Below are positions 6,715 to 51,904 of a stretch of 52,652 bases of DNA, one piece after another. Location: assembly GCA_021844025.1 (NCBI GenBank), contig JAKBUF010000001.1, forward strand, positions 1-52,652. The letters run 5' to 3'. Numbering within the stretch: position 1 is the first letter of the stretch; every line of letters starts with the position of its first letter. The position numbers were made by a program, and so were the translations under genes. The stretch comes from a bacterium. GTDB taxonomy: Bacteria > Patescibacteriota > Minisyncoccia > UBA6257 > JAGOQP01. The notes below the pieces were generated by a model that made no database searches, had not been told where the DNA came from, and saw only the letters and a program-made list of their open reading frames with translations.

Positions 6715-7284
6715 TTAGCGAATGATGATAACCCTTTCGCTCGCTGATGTTCCATGCTCAAACCTCACCCTAATCACATTTTTTAATTTCATTCCATTCA
6801 CGTTCCCTGGCCATTCCATAATCACCACCATATGTGGTTGTTTTTTTATTTCAGTAAACCCAATAAGTTCTAGATCTTTTTTTGATTTTAATCGGTATGC
6901 GTCTATGTGCCAAATATTAGAGACAGTGACTTGTGATTGGTGACTAGTGGTTAGGGAATCTAACTTTTCAGTTTTCAATCTTGAATTATACTTTCCCCTT
7001 TCTCCCCCAGTAGTAGAAATGAGTTTCACTACGGGGCATGCTTTCCCCCTTCTCCTCGTTTCGTATCGCTTCGCGATTACGAACGTTGGACTTGCCGCCG
7101 CTGGTTTAATACCAAAATATTGTAAAAATCCCAAAGTAAAGGTCGTTTTTCCTGCTCCCAAATTTCCCTCAAGCAGCACAAACACCGGACCCTGAGAAAG
7201 ACCACTGTGATTGCTAATCTGACGCGCGATTGCCGCGCCTATTTTTTTAGTAACCGCCGGAGAGAAACTGATTATTTTTATCAT
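6715..7284 (-). CDS. tsaE: tRNA t6A37 biosynthesis ATPase TsaE, carrying an in-frame insertion of about 45 aa
   Basis: GNLGAGKTTF P-loop, SPTF, HIDAYRL and EW motifs. The likely start is ATG 7284, because the 11 codons up to 7317 translate the intergenic ATTGAAAATT array. Confidence 0.75.
   Translation of the reverse strand: MIKIISFSPAVTKKIGAAIARQISNHSGLSQGPVFVLLEGNLGAGKTTFTLGFLQYFGIKPAAASPTFVIAKRYETRRRGKACPVVKLISTTGGERGKYNSRLKTEKLDSLTTSHQSQVTVSNIWHIDAYRLKSKKDLELIGFTEIKKQPHMVVIMEWPGNVNGMKLKNVIRVRFEHGTSASERVIIIR
6916..7062. repeat. Composite intergenic-type repeat inserted in frame within tsaE
   Basis: Contains the TIR hairpin cccccagtagtagaaatgagtttcactacgggg (7004-7036). It also carries an attgaaaactgaaaa-type module and a ctaaccactagtcac-type module that otherwise occur only between genes. 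Confidence 0.55.
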
Positions 7285-7290
7285 AAAGAT

Positions 7291-7376
7291 TTTCAATTTC
7301 CAACGGTCAATGATCAATAAATTTCTAATTAATTAATTTTACAATTGAAAATTCACTGAAAATTGGAAATTGCTGT
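7291..7376. repeat. ATTGNAAATT intergenic array
   Basis: The sequence is tttcaatttccaa...acaattgaaaattcactgaaaattggaaattg. Confidence 0.65.
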
Positions 7377-7407
7377 GCCCCGTAGAGAATTTATTCTTCT
7401 ACTGGGG
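7377..7407. repeat. TIR-hairpin repeat family copy (short form)
   Basis: gccccgtagagaatttattcttctactgggg, very similar to 47161-47193 including the flanking aaattgc(t/c)gt and aattg. Confidence 0.6.
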
Positions 7408-7444
7408 ATAATTGAAAATTATTTACTGGTTTTAGAGTGAAGCG

Positions 7445-8176
7445 CTAAAACCAGTAAGCTAGTGCTCCTATCGCCACACTACATAACGCAAACAGTCCCA
7501 CGTTCTTATACATATATTCTTTCGTAAGGGCGCTGGTGCGTATGTGCTGAACAATGTCGTCCATGATGATAAAAAATACCAAGAAGAGCGCGGCGGTATG
7601 AATTATATACAAAGATAACAGTGAAATACTCCATATATATTCAAGCGCCAACAAAGAAAACAGCATATACCACACGGCCTGTTCTTTGCCCCACTCCTGT
7701 TCTAAGAATCGTACTCGTTCTTTGGTGGTAATATATATCCCTACTGCCACAAACAACGTTTTTAACCAAAACGGATCGGTGAGCGCGTTAGATGCCCACC
7801 ACGCCGCCGCCATTCCCAACATAAGATACTGAGCCATGTACAGTGTGCGTTCGTGTCGAGGAATAACAAATCCAATTGCTCCCAAAAAGAGAAAGGTAAG
7901 AACTACTATATACAGAGCTGTGGCCCATATATATAACGGCTCCGTTACTCCACGTATAACATACAAAGACACCAAAGATAAAAACAAGAAAGAAAACCCC
8001 ATCTTTCCCTTTCCACGTACGCGAGTTACATATATATATACGGCACACAAAAACCACGCTAGGGTCCCCCACACGCTTACGCGAGAAGCCACCGCAAGCA
8101 CCGCAAACACCACACTGTTAAGCAACAGTAATAGTGTGGGAAGTGGAAAAAGAGATTTTAACTTTTTTACGATCAT
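7445..8176 (-). CDS. Polytopic membrane protein, function unknown
   Basis: 243-aa ORF with about 7 hydrophobic helices. The annotated start overlaps the clpB 3' end by 59 nt, and in-frame TTG 8125 or GTG 8113 are alternatives. Confidence 0.55.
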   Translation of the reverse strand: MIVKKLKSLFPLPTLLLLLNSVVFAVLAVASRVSVWGTLAWFLCAVYIYVTRVRGKGKMGFSFLFLSLVSLYVIRGVTEPLYIWATALYIVVLTFLFLGAIGFVIPRHERTLYMAQYLMLGMAAAWWASNALTDPFWLKTLFVAVGIYITTKERVRFLEQEWGKEQAVWYMLFSLLALEYIWSISLLSLYIIHTAALFLVFFIIMDDIVQHIRTSALTKEYMYKNVGLFALCSVAIGALAYWF

Positions 8177-10766
8177 TGATTTCTCGTTTTATAAGCTTAT
8201 CTGCTAGTTTATCAAGAATTTGCTTTTGAATCACGCGTTTAATGGGGCGGGCGCCAAATAATGGGTCGTATCCTTCTTGCGCAATATATTTTTTAACCCC
8301 CGCATCAACCTCCACCCGGAACCCTTTGTCTGCCATTTTTTGTAGGACCATTTGCTCAATTTGAATGTCTACAATGCGCGCAATATCTTTTGGTGAAAGC
8401 GGATTAAATATAATAATTTCATCTAACCGATTCAGAAACTCCGGACGGAATTGATCTTTGAGTGAATCAAGAATTTTTTCTCGAACCGCTTCGGTGTTGT
8501 GTTTCTTTTTTTGTTCTTCGGTTTGACCACTTTCAAAACCCAGTGGAGTTGAGCGATCCATAAAGAATTCGCTTCCGGCGTTTGAGGTAAGAATAATAAT
8601 ACTATTTTTGAAGTTGGTGGTTTTTCCTTTAGCATCGGTTAAGCGACCATTGTCTAACACTTGCAACAGAATATTAAACACCTCAGGGTGCGCTTTTTCT
8701 ATTTCATCAAACAAAATCAAACTGTATGGGCGGTGACGAATGGTTTCAGTTAAGTATCCTCCCTCTTCATAGCCCACGTATCCTGGAGGAGAACCTATAA
8801 GTTTTGATACCGCGTGTTTTTCCATAAACTCAGACATATCTACTCGCACCAACGCTTTTTCGTCGTTAAACATAAACTGCGCCAGCGCGCGCGCCAGCTC
8901 TGTTTTTCCCACTCCGGTGGGCCCCAAGAACATAAATGAACCAAGTGGTTTATTTTCATCAGAAAGTCCGGCACGCGCTCGGCGCAATGCCCGGGCAATT
9001 TCTCCTACTGCTTCATCTTGCCCCACCACTCGTTTTTTAAGAGTCTCTTCAATGTGAATTAACTTTTCAGATTCCGACTCCAACATTTTTGACACCGGCA
9101 CTCCAGTCCACCGAGCAACCACGTGCGCAATATCTTCTTCATCAACCGATTCTTTTATAAATGAGGTTTGTTTGGGTGCTTGTTTCTTTGCTTGTTTGCG
9201 CTCAATGGTGCGTAATTCTTTTTCTTTTGCGGGAATTTCTCCGTACAAAATACGCGCCACTCGTTCAAAATTACCCTCACGTTCCTGTGTTTGTGCTTCT
9301 TGTTTCAGGGCCTCTATGGCACGCTGTAACACACTCACGTTCTCAAATGAGTCTTTTTCTGTTTTCCACGCGGTGTATAACTTGTCGCTTTCCGCTTTTA
9401 ATTTTGCAATTTGTCTTTCAATTTCTTTTACTCGTGTTGTTTGCGCGGTTTTACTTTTTTCTCCCGCAATTGCCGATTTTTCTATTTCTAATCGAGTAAG
9501 TTCTCTACGCATTTTTTCAACCTCCGCGGGAACACTGTCCGATTCCAATTTGCACGCCGCAGCGGCTTCATCAATTAAATCAATAGCTTTATCGGGTAAG
9601 AATCGATCAGTTAAATATCGAGCTGATAATTGTACCGCGGCAACGATCGCACCATCAGCAATACGAATACCATGGTGTAGTTCATATTTTTCTTTCAGTC
9701 CTCGCAGAATAGAAATACTATCTTCGGTGGTTGGTTCATCAACCATAATAGGTTGGAACCGACGCTCCAATGCCGCATCTTTTTCAATGTGTTTCTGATA
9801 TTCCTTTATAGTCGTTGCTCCAATAGCACGCAGTTCTCCCCGGGCCAATGCGGGTTTTAATAAATTAGATGCATCTACTGCTCCTTCGGCCGCACCCGCT
9901 CCCACAATCATATGAATTTCATCAATAAACAAAATTAATTTCCCCGCTGAATTTTGTATTTCTTTCATAAACGCCTTCAAGCGGTCTTCAAAATCTCCGC
10001 GAAACTTTGTTCCCGCAATTAATGATCCCAAATCTAACATAACAATTTCTTTTCCCTTTAAGCTCTCGGGGACCTCATTATGCACAATACGCTGCGCCAA
10101 CCCTTCTACAATTGCCGTTTTTCCTACTCCTGGTTCGCCAATTAATACGGGGTTGTTTTTAGTACGGCGAGAAAGCACCTGAATTAAGCGGCGTAATTCT
10201 TCGTCGCGCCCAATAACGGGGTCTAATTTATTTTCCCGGGCTCGCTGAGTAAGATTAATAGAATATTTTTCAAGTACTTGAAACTTGTTTTCGGGGGTTT
10301 CGTCGGTTACCCGCGAAGACCCGCGAATTTCATCAAATACCCGGTTCGCGGTTTCTTTATCAAATCCCATACGCGCTAATAATTGTGTAGCTGAAGATTG
10401 CGCGTGAGTAATAGCTAACAATAAATGTTCACAGGAAATAAATTCATCCTTTTTGGTAAGTGCAATTTTTGAAGCGCGGTCTAAAATTAAAATGAGTTCC
10501 TGCGATAAATATAATTGCCCCACCGATTGTGTTTGAGAAAACACTTTGGGCTGTTTCTCAAGATCTTGTTCTATTTCTCTTCCTAATAAATCCAAGTCCA
10601 CCCCTGCCTTTATTAACATGGGGTGTACGAGTGATTGTTTATCCATAACTAGCGCTGCAAGTAAGTGAGCAGCACGCAACTCGCCGCTGTTTTTCTCGGC
10701 GGCTATTTCCTGAGCGTTTTGAAGCGCTTCCTGCGCTTTTATAGTAAATCGGTTAAAGTTTGCCAT
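8118..10766 (-). CDS. clpB: ATP-dependent chaperone/disaggregase ClpB
   Basis: 882 aa with a Clp_N domain, two AAA+ modules ([18 protein letters not shown]), a long middle coiled-coil and a ClpB_D2-small C-terminus. Confidence 0.95.
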
Positions 10767-14430: not shown

Positions 14431-14997
14431 TTAGAACAAGCGCTGATATAACAATCGTTCTTTCCAATCAAATGTTGCTTTTTCTGGTTCGGGGCCATTA
14501 CGAGTGGGCACTAATAGAAAACCTTGTTTCTTGCCCATATCATATAATTCTTTAGTCACTTTCACGTCGTTCAAACAATATTTTTTTAATTCTTCCATTT
14601 TCCCCTCCCCGTATAAAATTGGCGCGTCCATGCCGTGCCCTGTTTTTCCGTATCCTAAGTTCTGCTTTGCGAGTAAATCTAAACTAATGCGTTTACCAAT
14701 TTGTAATTCAATTTCATCTAAAATATCAGTGCGCGGAATTGCAAACAAATCAAAGTCGTAGTGCTTTGCCATAACCGGCAAGTCAAACCGCGTAATTGAA
14801 AATCCAATAAGCAGTCCAGTATTTTTCATTAATTCTCCTAATTTATCTAGCTCATGTTCATCAAACGCAATATATTTGTCTTGATTATATGAGTATGCGC
14901 CCACCACTGAAATATTTAGGCCAGTAAAATTGTCTCGTCCCACATCCGCAAATGTGTTCTTGGTTTCAATATCTATGACTACGGTATCTTTGTTCAT
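14431..14997 (-). CDS. DEDD-type 3'-5' exonuclease (RNase H-like fold, PolB-exo-like), directly downstream of the DGR RT
   Basis: ExoI VIDIETKN, ExoII GFSITRFDLPVM and ExoIII YCLNDVKVTKELY. It lies 26 nt after the RT stop on the same strand. Confidence 0.7.
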   Translation of the reverse strand: MNKDTVVIDIETKNTFADVGRDNFTGLNISVVGAYSYNQDKYIAFDEHELDKLGELMKNTGLLIGFSITRFDLPVMAKHYDFDLFAIPRTDILDEIELQIGKRISLDLLAKQNLGYGKTGHGMDAPILYGEGKMEELKKYCLNDVKVTKELYDMGKKQGFLLVPTRNGPEPEKATFDWKERLLYQRLF

Positions 14998-15023: not shown

Positions 15024-16064
15024 TTATGTCAAAAATCTTCTTACTCGCACCTCTGTCTTTCTATTTCTGCAGTGCGAAAGCACACCAAGATAAGAATCCA
15101 CTGTTCCATAATATGTTGTCTCTGTGATTTCTCCCTGTTTAAATTTTTTACGTGCCAATGCAAGTTTCCGAAGCATTCTCTTTTTTGTTTTGGTGCGTAG
15201 AATGACAGTGCGTGGTAGTATAACATATCCCAAAAAATCAACTCCTTGTGTGAGTTTTCTGATTTCCACCTTTGTTGGATGCAACCCAAGTAATAATTTC
15301 TCTTTCAAAAATGCCCTTATTTTCTCTTTCATTTCTTCCAAGAGTTCTCTGTTGGTGTGTACAATGACAAAATCATCACAATACCGAAAATAATGTTTCG
15401 CTTTTAATGTGTGTTTTGCGAATTGATCTAACTCATTCAAGTATATATTCGCAAATAATTGACTCGTGACATTTCCCAATGGTAGGCCTTTATCCTTTTG
15501 TTTTTCAAAACTATTAAGAATGACATCTATTAGCCACAATGTATCCGTATCACAAATTCTTTGTGTAATAAGATTTCGTAAGAGAGTATGATCTATCGTA
15601 TCAAAAAATTTTCGTATATCACATTTCAAGATATATGTGGTTTGTTTCCAGTTTTTACTCACTTTACGACACGCATTGTACAAACGTCTTACTCCTTTGT
15701 GTGTTCCTTTTTCAAGACGAGAAGAATATGAATCATAAATAAAATGTGTGTCAAAAATTTTATATAGTACACGGAAGAGCGCCTGATGCACAACCCTGTC
15801 TTTTACGTTCGCTTTATGAATGTGCCGCCGTTTAGGATCGCACACATAAAAACTTTTATACGGATCGTGGGTATATGTTTTGGTACTAAGTTGTTTGTGC
15901 AATGCAAACAAATAATCTTCGCTTCGTAACGAAAATAACGCAACGTCTTTTCGTTTTATTTTTCCGCGTTTAAATTCATTCCACGCACGCAATAAATTTG
16001 ATATACTTGCAATATGAAAAAACAAACTTGGAACGCCCCCCCCCCACGGAACCAATGACCCCAT
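15024..16064 (-). CDS. DGR reverse transcriptase
   Basis: RT motifs include LPLGNVTSQ (the [I/L]GxxxSQ signature of DGR RTs) and YCDDFVIV. The protein is short (346 aa) with no maturase or endonuclease domain. TR lies 389 nt upstream. Confidence 0.9.
   Translation of the reverse strand: MGSLVPWGGGVPSLFFHIASISNLLRAWNEFKRGKIKRKDVALFSLRSEDYLFALHKQLSTKTYTHDPYKSFYVCDPKRRHIHKANVKDRVVHQALFRVLYKIFDTHFIYDSYSSRLEKGTHKGVRRLYNACRKVSKNWKQTTYILKCDIRKFFDTIDHTLLRNLITQRICDTDTLWLIDVILNSFEKQKDKGLPLGNVTSQLFANIYLNELDQFAKHTLKAKHYFRYCDDFVIVHTNRELLEEMKEKIRAFLKEKLLLGLHPTKVEIRKLTQGVDFLGYVILPRTVILRTKTKKRMLRKLALARKKFKQGEITETTYYGTVDSYLGVLSHCRNRKTEVRVRRFLT
16036..16045. repeat. C10/G10 homopolymer in the RT/avd head-to-head overlap
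   Basis: Ten consecutive C on the plus strand. It encodes WGGG of the RT N-terminus and PPP of the avd-frame extension. Confidence 0.95.
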
Positions 16065-16140
16065 TTCGCTTATCCATACGGTAAAAAAGTTATACGCGAC
16101 AGCATATCAGATTGGCACCACTCTTTCCAAACGTGACAAA

Positions 16141-16428
16141 TTGGGTATTCATAGTGAAATTGAGAAAATTATTCTTGCGATATTACAGCTCACCACGCGA
16201 GCCTGTTTCTGCGCAAAAATACAGAAAGAACAGAAAATAAATTATCTCAAAGAAATTCGTATTTCTCTTGAGGTTTTAAAACAATTCGTACGCACGGAAT
16301 ATGAATTGCATATTATTACAGAAAAAACATATCTTATGTTTGTAGCTGTCATTATTACTTCATCTAAAGAAACAAATAATTGGCTTGCGTCACTTATAAA
16401 ACCGAGGACACAAAACCCCACTTTGTAG
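16141..16428 (+). CDS. Avd-like four-helix-bundle protein (23S rRNA IVS protein family), opposite strand to RT/TR; start unresolved
   Basis: LSKRDKLGIHSEIEKIILAIL... matches the FPKxEKFGL-xxQxxRAAxSI pattern. Similarity extends upstream to about 16066 with no in-frame ATG/GTG/TTG. ATG 16014 comes into frame if the C-run is 9. Confidence 0.7.
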   Translation: MGIHSEIEKIILAILQLTTRACFCAKIQKEQKINYLKEIRISLEVLKQFVRTEYELHIITEKTYLMFVAVIITSSKETNNWLASLIKPRTQNPTL

Positions 16429-16452
16429 TGGGGTTTATCGTGTTGAAACTTC

Positions 16453-16564
16453 TGACGGACGCCACCGCTGGAATTGTAGTTATTTACACCGTTGTAGTTC
16501 ACGTCCACCGTGTCATTGTTCGGATTCCAGTTCATGTTCGGCACGCCGCCATCAACCGTACGGG
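16453..16564 (-). repeat. DGR template repeat (TR)
   Basis: 112 nt, 98/112 identical to VR, and A-rich on the minus strand with about 10 AAY codons (NMNWNPNNDTVDVNYNGVNNYNSS). Confidence 0.9.
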
Positions 16565-16859
16565 GCATCTTTCTGTATACATTCATCTCTTACACCGACT
16601 CTCCTGTTGCCAAGATCTCTGTGTTATTCTCGTAGTTATGAGCACTGTGTTGCATCATTATGTATATGAAGTATCTATGCAAAAATATATACAGGCAGTT
16701 TCAGTATGTGGTAAATCACCATACACATTTTTTTGTGCACTGACTTTGCAACCATGTGTATAATAAAAAAGTGCTACAACTTTTGCAAGCCATAGCACAA
16801 TTTATTTTTTCTCTTTTTGTGTAAAAAGGGAAAAAAGATAAAAAGAGAAAAAAGAGAAA

Positions 16860-17669
16860 TCAAACTGAAACCACTTGACGGACGCCACCGCCGGAAATGT
16901 AGTAATCTACACCGCTGTAGTGCACGCCCACCGCGTCAATGATCGGAAACCAGTTCATGCTCGGCACGCCGCCATCAACCGCACGGGAGCCACTGCAAAG
17001 TGTGAAACCCTTCTCATCGAGATGTTTTTTGGTCTCAATGAAATGGATGATTCCATGAACCATTCTCTCAAGCAGAGTTTCACCGACTGTTTTGTTGGGA
17101 TCGACCTGCTTAGTGGATTGATTTCGAAACTTAATATCGCTTTCTTGATCGTCACGAACCCAAATGGCATACGAGCCATTTTTAGAATCACGGATATTGT
17201 CAGTCACTTTAACGTCAATGCTCGTGCCATAGTAGCTGTCTTTCCACATTTTGGCATTATATCCAGAAACAACTTTCCCGTATATGCTGTATGTGAAATC
17301 CATAGTGAGCCCTTTAGCAACAAACAACAATCGCCATTTGCCCTCGGCTGGTTTTTGGGGAACGATAATATCGGTAAAATCAACATCCACGTCAAAATAT
17401 TTTTTATAGATGGTTTGCCAGTATGTTCTCACTTCAGCAAATTCATCCACGGTAACCGCAAATATCGGAGCAAGTGCGATACGGATTTTTTCGGCAAGGG
17501 AGGTTTTATTTTGTAATAATACTTTTTTCTCATCATCCGATAATGAGAAAAAATAAAATGAAATCATTTCAGTAATAACCGAAACGATAAAACCGATCAA
17601 AATCCCCAGTTGTTTAATGTTTGATGCCGCCACGTTTGTGGCTATGAAGTTAGTTCCATGCTTTTTCAT
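16860..17669 (-). CDS. DGR target (variable) protein, membrane-anchored, C-terminal CLec-like variable region
   Basis: 269 aa with an N-terminal TM helix (LGILIGFIVSVITEMISFYFF). VR forms the last ~37 codons (AVDGGVPSMNWFPIIDAVGVHYSGVDYYISGGGVRQ). An AAGGAGAAAAG RBS is present. Confidence 0.85.
   Translation of the reverse strand: MKKHGTNFIATNVAASNIKQLGILIGFIVSVITEMISFYFFSLSDDEKKVLLQNKTSLAEKIRIALAPIFAVTVDEFAEVRTYWQTIYKKYFDVDVDFTDIIVPQKPAEGKWRLLFVAKGLTMDFTYSIYGKVVSGYNAKMWKDSYYGTSIDVKVTDNIRDSKNGSYAIWVRDDQESDIKFRNQSTKQVDPNKTVGETLLERMVHGIIHFIETKKHLDEKGFTLCSGSRAVDGGVPSMNWFPIIDAVGVHYSGVDYYISGGGVRQVVSV
16876..16987 (-). repeat. DGR variable repeat (VR)
   Basis: Offset of 423 nt from TR. There are 14 mismatches, all where TR has A on the minus strand. 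The shared GC-rich 3' end GCGGTGGCGTCCGTCA is IMH-like. Confidence 0.9.
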
Positions 17670-42262: not shown

Positions 42263-42344
42263 TGGGCGAGGTGGGACTTGAACCCACACCCCTTGCGGAA
42301 CAGCGCCCTAAACGCTGCGTGTCTGCCAATTTCACCACTCGCCC
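42263..42344 (-). tRNA. tRNA-Leu (anticodon UAG)
   Basis: Hand-folded cloverleaf: acceptor GGGCGAG/CTCGCCC, anticodon arm CAGCG-TTTAGGG-CGCTG, long variable arm, T-arm GTGGG-TTCAAGT-CCCAC, discriminator A. No CCA is encoded. Confidence 0.9.
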
Positions 42345-50820: not shown

Positions 50821-50892
50821 TCGGCTCGGTAGGATTCGAACCTACAACCAATCGTGTATAAGACGAACGCTCTACCATTGAGCTACGAGCCG
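50821..50892 (-). tRNA. tRNA with anticodon UAU (Ile, AUA-reading)
   Basis: Hand-folded cloverleaf: acceptor CGGCTCG/CGAGCCG, D-arm GCTC-AATGGTA-GAGC, anticodon arm TTCGT-CTTATAC-ACGAT (one T-T at the stem top), T-arm GTAGG-TTCGAAT-CCTAC, discriminator A. Confidence 0.75.
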
Positions 50893-51830: not shown

Positions 51831-51904
51831 GCGCGCTTAGCTCAGTTGGTTAGAGCGTCTCGTTTACACCGAGAAGGTCGAGGGTTCGAATCCTTCAGCG
51901 CGCA
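51831..51904 (+). tRNA. tRNA-Val (anticodon UAC)
   Basis: Hand-folded cloverleaf: acceptor GCGCGCT/AGCGCGC, D-arm GCTC-AGTTGGTTA-GAGC, anticodon arm TCTCG-TTTACAC-CGAGA, T-arm GAGGG-TTCGAAT-CCTTC, discriminator A. Confidence 0.9.

Follow-up and report, generated by a model that had tools for sequence, protein, structure and literature searches.

The segment at positions 15024-17669 of this Patescibacteria DNA raises the question of whether it is a diversity-generating retroelement (DGR), to which class such an element would belong and how its expression might be governed. The window, that is the whole stretch of DNA that was analysed, is 52,652 nucleotides (52.6 kb) long. The sequence features of the segment indicated, with high confidence, a chromosomal Patescibacteria-type DGR having the layout target(VR)-TR-inverted avd-RT, where VR is the variable repeat, TR the template repeat and RT the reverse transcriptase. 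A preliminary description of the segment had offered the DGR interpretation, and this was supported by an RT of the DGR type, a TR/VR pair that diverges at adenines only, the position of the VR at the 3' end of an open reading frame (ORF), the codon positions of the adenines and an Avd-like gene (scoring below cut-off), and also by more than 20 loci of related Patescibacteria in which the cassette recurs with adenine-only pairs of its own. The adenine-only divergence, the adenine codon positions, the family matches of the RT and of the Avd-like protein, and the presence of the cassette in relatives were observed directly. The parts of the element are as follows.

16860..17669, minus strand: target (variable protein) gene, 269 aa; an ORF without Pfam or NCBIfam family
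16876..16987, minus strand: VR; found by repeat finder, base comparison and a pattern search with A replaced by N
16453..16564, minus strand: TR; intergenic, with 31 adenines and, when read in the frame of the VR, 10 AAY codons
~16046..16428, plus strand: Avd-like accessory gene of the four-helix-bundle family (bAvd and DivGenRetAVD matches)
15024..16064, minus strand: DGR reverse transcriptase, 346 aa as drawn (RVT_1, E 1.2e-24)

A repeat finder was run on the window and the copies found were then compared base by base on the minus strand. The sole long direct repeat of the region is 112 nt in length, its copies being the TR and the VR at a spacing of 423 nt and 88% identity, with 98 of the 112 positions identical; the coordinates, offset and identity given in the preliminary description were thus reproduced exactly. 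All 14 mismatches occur at adenines of the TR, to which the VR opposes G in 7 cases, T in 6 and C in 1; this for a repeat holding 31 adenines in 112 nt corresponds to a hypergeometric p of 1.1e-9. The adenine-only pattern described earlier is therefore confirmed, and chance or an ordinary duplication as the origin of the pair was rejected because 14 of 14 mismatches fall on A of the TR (p ~1e-9). The identity collapses abruptly on both flanks, again as first described. In the frame of CDS 16860-17669 the TR reads RTVDGGVPNMNWNPNNDTVDVNYNGVNNYNSSGGVR and the VR reads RAVDGGVPSMNWFPIIDAVGVHYSGVDYYISGGGVR, giving 13 amino-acid changes. The richness of the TR in Asn codons was borne out by AAY codons at 10 of 36 places in the VR frame, and codon positions 1-2 hold 30 of the 31 TR adenines. 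The VR encodes residues ~229-265 of the 269-aa target and stops 5 codons ahead of the stop codon, in agreement with its assignment to the C-terminal ~37 residues. The search for further VRs matching the TR, which the preliminary description had proposed, was run across the 52.6-kb window with the A-to-N pattern; it returned the two known copies and no third TR-like copy, and shuffled sequences gave 0. The ORF 16242-16586 covering the TR is a mechanical ORF belonging to no family.

The type of the RT was assessed by its scores against all solved structures and by its motifs. The best solved relative was 8ub7, a 328-aa reverse transcriptase (E 7e-41, 143.7 bits, residues 14-304), which we take to be bRT, the DGR enzyme of the Bordetella phage. 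Group II intron and retron-type RTs reached 72-74 bits at most, ~70 bits below 8ub7, and the best E for group II intron RTs was 1e-19. The RT IGSLTSQLFANVY aligns with LGNVTSQLFANIY of 8ub7, and the LGNVTSQ and YCDD motifs reported earlier are present and both aligned with motifs of that enzyme. Group II intron and retron RTs have QGxxxSP as motif 4, whereas DGR RTs have LGxxxSQ. The window RT resembles the former in the RVT_1 fold with motifs 1-7 and differs from them in its LGxxxSQ motif 4, in the absence of a maturase domain and of intron or msr/msd RNA, and in PDB scores to them that are much weaker than to 8ub7. The best NCBIfam model for the RT was a group II intron RT/maturase at 162 bits against a cut-off of 300; no maturase or endonuclease domain was found in the protein, and an Rfam scan of the region gave no family and hence no intron or retron RNA, three tRNAs being all that Rfam matched anywhere in the window. 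A group II intron, retron or defence RT was accordingly rejected on the sub-threshold NCBIfam matches, the clear lead of 8ub7 and the lack of an Rfam RNA. Structure-database scores and motifs assign the RT to the DGR type, and the doubt raised in the preliminary description, that it might cluster with intron or retron enzymes, was answered by these scores, which place it ~70 bits closer to bRT. More than 7000 homologs of the RT were found; the best 120 are 56-75% identical, and all source-named ones among them are proteins of Patescibacteria metagenome-assembled genomes.

The Avd-like gene, placed between TR and RT, is encoded on the other strand from these two and from the VR. Its position had been given correctly in the preliminary description; its plus-strand orientation had gone unnoticed, its family scores lie under the cut-offs and it has no canonical start before TTG 16141. 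The match to Pfam bAvd had an E of 6e-6 and 27.1 bits (curated cut-off 40), and that to NCBIfam DivGenRetAVD an E of 1.5e-6 and 28.4 bits (curated cut-off 80). Avd homologs occupy the same inverted position in 8 loci by tblastn and in more of a larger locus set, and those at the matching position in relatives carry PF22296. The avd reading frame is open back through a C tract, and it is conserved and open from this tract to the stop. No ATG, GTG or TTG occurs in the frame from the upstream TGA (16015) until TTG 16141, which corresponds to residue ~26 of the homologous region, and the 25 residues ahead of this TTG are conserved in relatives. Recoding of UGA, which would extend avd upstream past TGA 16015, was unsupported and would also supply no start; TGA is the stop codon of 5 of the 27 long ORFs, the target among them, and the ORFs are intact under table 11.

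The cassette was then compared with its relatives. Fifty related loci were fetched (L numbers below) and scanned for TR/VR pairs with mismatches allowed only at A of one copy. The order in the loci with such pairs was always VR, TR, avd on the reverse strand and RT, and target homologs lie upstream of many of these cassettes. The sister lineage (L046-L048) has 87% nucleotide identity to the window; the TR of L046/L047 is identical to the window TR at 103 of 112 positions and their VR carries a different set of A substitutions, as independent diversification predicts. Architecture B3, TR-(avd)-RT, represents 90% of the DGRs of the candidate phyla radiation (CPR) (Wu et al. 2018, PMC5758913), and a CPR-restricted cellular DGR clade has targets without recognisable domains (Roux et al. 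2021, clade 2, PMC8144416). The B3 order was found in the window, with target(VR) ahead of TR, reverse-strand avd and RT. The gene order and avd strand agree with the CPR B3 elements (PMC5758913), and the chromosomal location, the single upstream target and the lack of a recognisable domain in this target agree with these elements and with DGR clade 2 (PMC5758913, PMC8144416); nothing in the window architecture differs from the B3 class. By its layout the element is a typical CPR B3-class DGR, a new member of a class already known, and the inverted avd is a known rule for that class. The neighbouring genes encode ClpB, an HtrA-like protease, a class-V aminotransferase/cysteine desulfurase, FtsK, RecA and MetRS, and a scan with the RT found no related RT in a viral contig collection. 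The element is considered chromosomal because of these housekeeping neighbours and the lack of related RTs in viral contigs, and a phage origin was rejected on the same grounds.

The mechanism was modelled on the paradigm of the Bordetella phage BPP-1 DGR. By this analogy, a TR-containing RNA would be reverse-transcribed by the RT with Avd, the RT would misincorporate opposite template adenines, and in a homing step the cDNA would be exchanged for the VR that ends the target gene on its 3' side, so that up to ~20 codons of the target C-terminal domain could be recoded. The RNA species, the priming, the homing and present activity are all taken from that paradigm and would apply here in so far as it holds. 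The element differs from BPP-1 (mtd-avd-TR-brt) in being cellular and not of a phage, in the inversion of avd and its location between TR and RT, and in a target whose fold is not recognisably that of a C-type lectin (CLec). Because the inverted avd sits between TR and RT, no obvious counterpart is seen for the BPP-1 spacer RNA from which cDNA synthesis is primed, and a terminator-like hairpin follows the window TR in its place.

The target protein has an N-terminal helical part followed by a C-terminal alpha/beta domain that bears the VR. No Pfam or NCBIfam family matched it, and 10 distant members of its family had no Pfam domains either. A word-indexed search gave 21 close homologs, all from Patescibacteria, with hypervariable C-terminal ~37 residues. 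Their scaffold is conserved as C-SGSR..DG.VP.V.W.P....V.V.W.........GGVR.AV with hypervariable intervening positions, and a full profile search extended the family to 1857 clusters at 50% identity. AlphaFold (AF2) models had a predicted local distance difference test (pLDDT) score of 88 for the full length, and a pLDDT of 91.8 with a predicted template modelling score (pTM) of 0.89 for residues 95-269. Foldseek searches of the full-length and domain models against PDB and BFVD gave no match at E<0.001; the best resemblances were weak (human DCIR and CD23 lectin domains, E 1-3, TM 0.2-0.4) and no DGR variable protein was among the top matches listed. The target profile found nothing significant among PDB sequences. 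The DGR variable proteins Mtd, TvpA, AvpA and TaqVP have the C-type lectin fold. The Foldseek searches, whose sensitivity for the CLec fold is limited, did not place the VR-bearing domain in it. Roux et al. (PMC8144416) supposed CPR targets to be very divergent CLec variants. On the present models, the target could be a very divergent CLec variant or a different scaffold.

Two side observations concern the target family. Target homologs with 43-59% identity were seen among housekeeping genes at 6001-6819 of L001 and L002 and 6001-6789 of L005; no RT, avd or TR was found within 6 kb of them, and they could be remote targets or orphans. In the 994-nt contig P0015, the C-terminus of a target homolog runs into sequence like the TR-downstream flank (…GLRQKFQRDYP…), which is either an assembly chimera of VR and TR or a VR/TR recombinant.

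The question of expression centres on the junction of avd and RT, where the two genes meet head to head in a 5' overlap around a simple sequence repeat (SSR). The features of the junction are given below.

16036..16045, both strands: homopolymer, C10 on the plus strand and G10 on the RT strand, inside the avd/RT head-to-head 5' overlap
TG 15999-16000, TATACT 16002-16007 and ATG 16014-16016, plus strand: avd-side extended -10-like box and ATG
16062..16094, minus strand: RT-side -10-like box TATAAC (16094-16089) and two ATGs

The C10:G10 tract is the only G/C run of at least 8 in the 52.6-kb window, where 0.011 runs of at least 10 were expected. Across 332 kb of fetched loci all G/C runs of at least 8 lie at the avd/RT junction with one exception, in L018, a more distant CPR DGR without a junction tract. 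In this locus a G10 at 2589-2598 stands inside the RT ORF just ahead of GLPIGN, and the RT frame breaks exactly there. The junction homopolymer ranges from G6 to G11 in most relatives, while the repeat is (GGACC)9 in L009 and (ACGGG)n with at least 11 units in L042-L045, an assembly gap falling inside the latter in 3 of 4 scaffolds. Among 120 RT homologs, 72 read through GG/GGG+ and others are of the GDGTGR type (pentanucleotide) or ERERE; (GA)n was deduced from ERERE in four of them. The pentanucleotide repeat counts 11 units in L044 and, in L042/43/45, at least 12 besides a gap left unresolved, the right flank being identical over 2984 nt, and direct evidence of a change in repeat length is limited to this locus. 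The junction repeat, the head-to-head overlap and the missing avd start are unmentioned in the DGR papers that were searched, a set that did not include Paul et al. 2017.

The C10 tract is 22 nt past the avd-side ATG and 19 or 32 nt past the two RT-side ATGs. The avd-side ATG is the antisense of the RT His17 codon and is +1 out of frame with avd. The first RT ATG (16077-16075) is the antisense of an Avd His codon and is out of frame with the RT, and the second (16064-16062) is in frame with it; an alternative in-frame RT start is TTG 16025-16023, 10 nt past the G tract. The avd-side box TGnTAyACT ends 6 or 9 nt upstream of the ATG in 16 of 16 loci. The RT-side box (TATAAT, TATACT or TACAAT) has its end 11 nt before the ATG in 12 of 16 loci and 8 nt before it in one, making 13 of 16, against a background in which a -10-like box stands at such a distance ahead of 5.7% of all ATGs. 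The synonymous codons under these signals are constrained: AGT, with a usage of 15%, serves as the RT Ser codon in 15 of 16 loci, and CAT, with a usage of 47%, as the RT His codon in 16 of 16. Leaderless expression seems to be usual in the host organism, since a Shine-Dalgarno (SD)-like motif was found in only 4 of the 27 long ORFs of the window and in many a box resembling TATAAT precedes the ATG by 6-13 nt.

For both promoter-proximal ATGs to be in frame, subtracting the antisense Avd phase from the RT phase must give 0 mod 3. The frame states of the loci were distributed as follows.

0 mod 3: both repeat-less relatives and 2 of 17 unique repeat-bearing loci
1 mod 3: 10 of 17 unique repeat-bearing loci, this window included
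2 mod 3: 5 of 17 unique repeat-bearing loci

The avd frame thus joins the promoter-proximal ATG in only 2 of 17 repeat-bearing loci, and constitutive read-through of the tract from the flanking ATGs was rejected on this count. In the two relatives without an SSR, both genes start at overlapping in-frame ATGs.

Tentatively, and as a possibility that falls short of an even chance, we propose that in most Patescibacteria DGRs the junction SSR acts as a stochastic on/off switch or slippage throttle on the hypermutation machine. In this model avd and RT would be divergent, largely leaderless genes whose first 10-20 codons overlap around one shared SSR of the forms G/C 6-11 or more, (ACGGG)n, (GGACC)n or (GA)n. 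With moderate confidence, they would be transcribed divergently from -10-like boxes lying in the 5' coding sequence of each other, and their first codons would overlap on opposite strands across C10:G10. One repeat length would put both genes in frame and the other two lengths would put both out, because each promoter-proximal ATG is the antisense of a conserved His codon of the other gene. Avd expression, and partly that of the RT, would then depend on slippage at the tract in DNA, in RNA or on the ribosome, and the C10 state of the window would read as Avd-off with the RT rescued by its second ATG. Slippage of this kind would plausibly account for the kinds of repeat, for the frame states and for the constraint on signals of the opposite strand.

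The proposal has precedents in SSR contingency loci such as Neisseria opa with (CTCTT)n, the poly-G genes of Campylobacter, and Haemophilus hifA/hifB with (TA)n between divergent promoters. In loci of this class the repeat lies between the start codon and the ORF body or within the promoter, and the first of these layouts was found at C10. The likeness extends to the order ATG, repeat and ORF, to varied motifs at one homologous position, none with a stop in any frame, to a copy-number difference between samples (in the pentanucleotide version) and to frames that vary among relatives. In contrast to those loci, one repeat is here common to two divergent overlapping genes, the product controlled would be a targeted mutator, and no length polymorphism was seen for the homopolymer version in 5 sets of near-identical assemblies.

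Several observations weigh against a switch at the junction. The promoter-like boxes are confounded with conserved residues encoded on the opposite strand. The homopolymer length was identical within 5 of 5 sets of near-identical independent assemblies, and the C10/C9 difference from the sister lineage is a point substitution and not an indel; short-read assemblies can misstate homopolymer length by one.

A rival to the slippage switch, which is also less likely than not, is that the tract is a purine-rich ribosome-binding or 5' untranslated region element for the RT. The RT would then start at TTG, CTG or ATT and Avd at the conserved Ile codon of D-I, both downstream of the tract. A canonical start does occur 7-13 nt past the G tract in ~12 of 21 loci, L031 has a stop after the tract and then an ATG 12 nt later, and one database RT starts at ATT 12 nt past G11. 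The near-random look of the frames relative to the flanking ATGs and the stable tract length across near-identical assemblies also agree with this reading. Against it, SD motifs are rare in the organism (4 of 27 ORFs), (GGACC)n is not purine-rich, and in 0 of 13 loci is there a canonical avd start between the tract and the conserved N-terminal motif, the frame being open in all. Also against it are the ATG and -10 box of the opposite strand, which constraint on synonymous codons preserves, and the overlapping in-frame ATGs of the two SSR-less relatives.

As to the element as a whole, three points stand against the DGR reading preferred here: the Avd scores are under the curated thresholds, the variable domain of the model was unrecognised as a C-type lectin or Ig fold, and the element may be switched off or decaying because avd has no in-frame start in the assembled sequence before residue ~26. 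An alternative reading is that the segment is a DGR by descent which is silent or decaying here, with TR/VR differences that record past activity only and an Avd untranslatable from the assembled sequence. This was judged unlikely. The avd without a canonical in-frame start, its upstream ATG +1 out of frame, and the existence of degenerate relatives speak in its favour: the RT of L006 lacks its first 134 residues, the RT frames of L007 and L018 are broken, and no RT lies within 6 kb of several target homologs. The RT ORF of the window, however, is intact along its full length, and the Avd frame is open and conserved from tract to stop. The TR/VR pair has zero non-A mismatches although the sister-lineage TR differs at 9 of 112 positions, which indicates that the VR was rewritten recently relative to the point-mutation rate. 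Moreover, relatives as a rule have avd out of frame in the same way (15 of 17 loci), and this speaks for regulation and not for decay. As a separate observation on the L006 cassette (7230-8198), its avd, TR and VR are intact with 12 A-only mismatches; it appears to be a truncated element and is presumably dead.

An ordinary duplication beside a group II intron, retron or defence RT is close to inconceivable, since the NCBIfam model that favours it scored far under its 300-bit cut-off in a protein lacking maturase and endonuclease domains, a DGR RT was the best solved relative by ~70 bits, all 14 mismatches are at A (p 1e-9) and the region has no Rfam intron or retron RNA.

The sequences flanking the VR and the TR were also inspected in the DGR and its relatives, and the following features were recorded.

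16876..16891, minus strand: GC-rich 3' end common to VR and TR (GCGGTGGCGTCCGTCA), from base comparison
16805..16859, minus strand: pyrimidine-rich tract (90% pyrimidine) just 3' of the target stop
16771-16798, minus strand: terminator-like hairpin after the target gene, from consensus scans only
16760-16788, minus strand: promoter-like site TTGCAA-17-TATTAT overlapping that hairpin, from consensus scans only
16408..16452, minus strand: TR-proximal element with conserved GAAGTTTCAAC, then a hairpin (core 16414-16435) and a U tract

The TR/VR identity ceases right after the shared GC-rich 16-mer. A resemblance of this end to an initiation of mutagenic homing (IMH) site had been noted at first; the shared GC-rich end stands, and the 16-mer is IMH-like by position, so that the label expresses a resemblance only. 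In relatives the homology stops a few bases past the conserved ...GGTGTCCGnnGAG, with TR-specific AAGT against VR-specific CAGT/CTGT. Within the pyrimidine-rich tract, 23 nt downstream of the VR, there is an inverted repeat of 14 nt whose arms (16805-16818, 16840-16853) match perfectly. The CT fraction in relatives averages 0.66 downstream of the VR against 0.54 after the TR (Wilcoxon p 0.008). The tract with its inverted repeat may be a target-site recognition element. Repeated CYTTGG-like motifs were seen downstream of the VR in more distant relatives. The promoter-like site at 16760-16788 could drive the TR RNA. The TR-proximal hairpin (window 16408-16443) shares its position with the 3' end of avd, which is on the opposite strand. 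When 21 related loci were folded singly, a hairpin was found 15-45 nt past the TR end in all 21, with a U tract next in most; the stem sequences differ among loci, and a conserved GAAGTTTCA precedes the hairpin in closer relatives. This hairpin could be a bidirectional terminator, a part of the template RNA, or both.

Outside the cassette, a 188-aa 3'-5' exonuclease / RNase H-like protein is encoded at 14431-14997 on the minus strand, 27 nt downstream of the RT and on the same strand. Its role as a DGR accessory was rejected as it is not beside the RT in any related locus, and it is probably a mere neighbour. The Rfam matches of the window are listed for completeness.

42263-42344: tRNA gene
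50821-50892: tRNA gene
51831-51904: tRNA gene

The DGR of the window is one more well-resolved example of the commonest CPR cassette, and its interest lies in two features common to its relatives, the fold of the target and the repeat conserved at the junction. The absence of an annotated domain from so large a family, together with a confident predicted fold that is unmatched, raises the question of whether massive DGR variation is always carried on a C-type lectin scaffold. The control of DGR activity is poorly understood, and the junction repeat may gate the expression of the mutator; if this is true, it would be a contingency locus controlling a mutator. A slippage switch at this repeat would explain the frequent lack of callable avd starts in these elements, and with it the cells could keep hypermutation off in most of them and on in a few.

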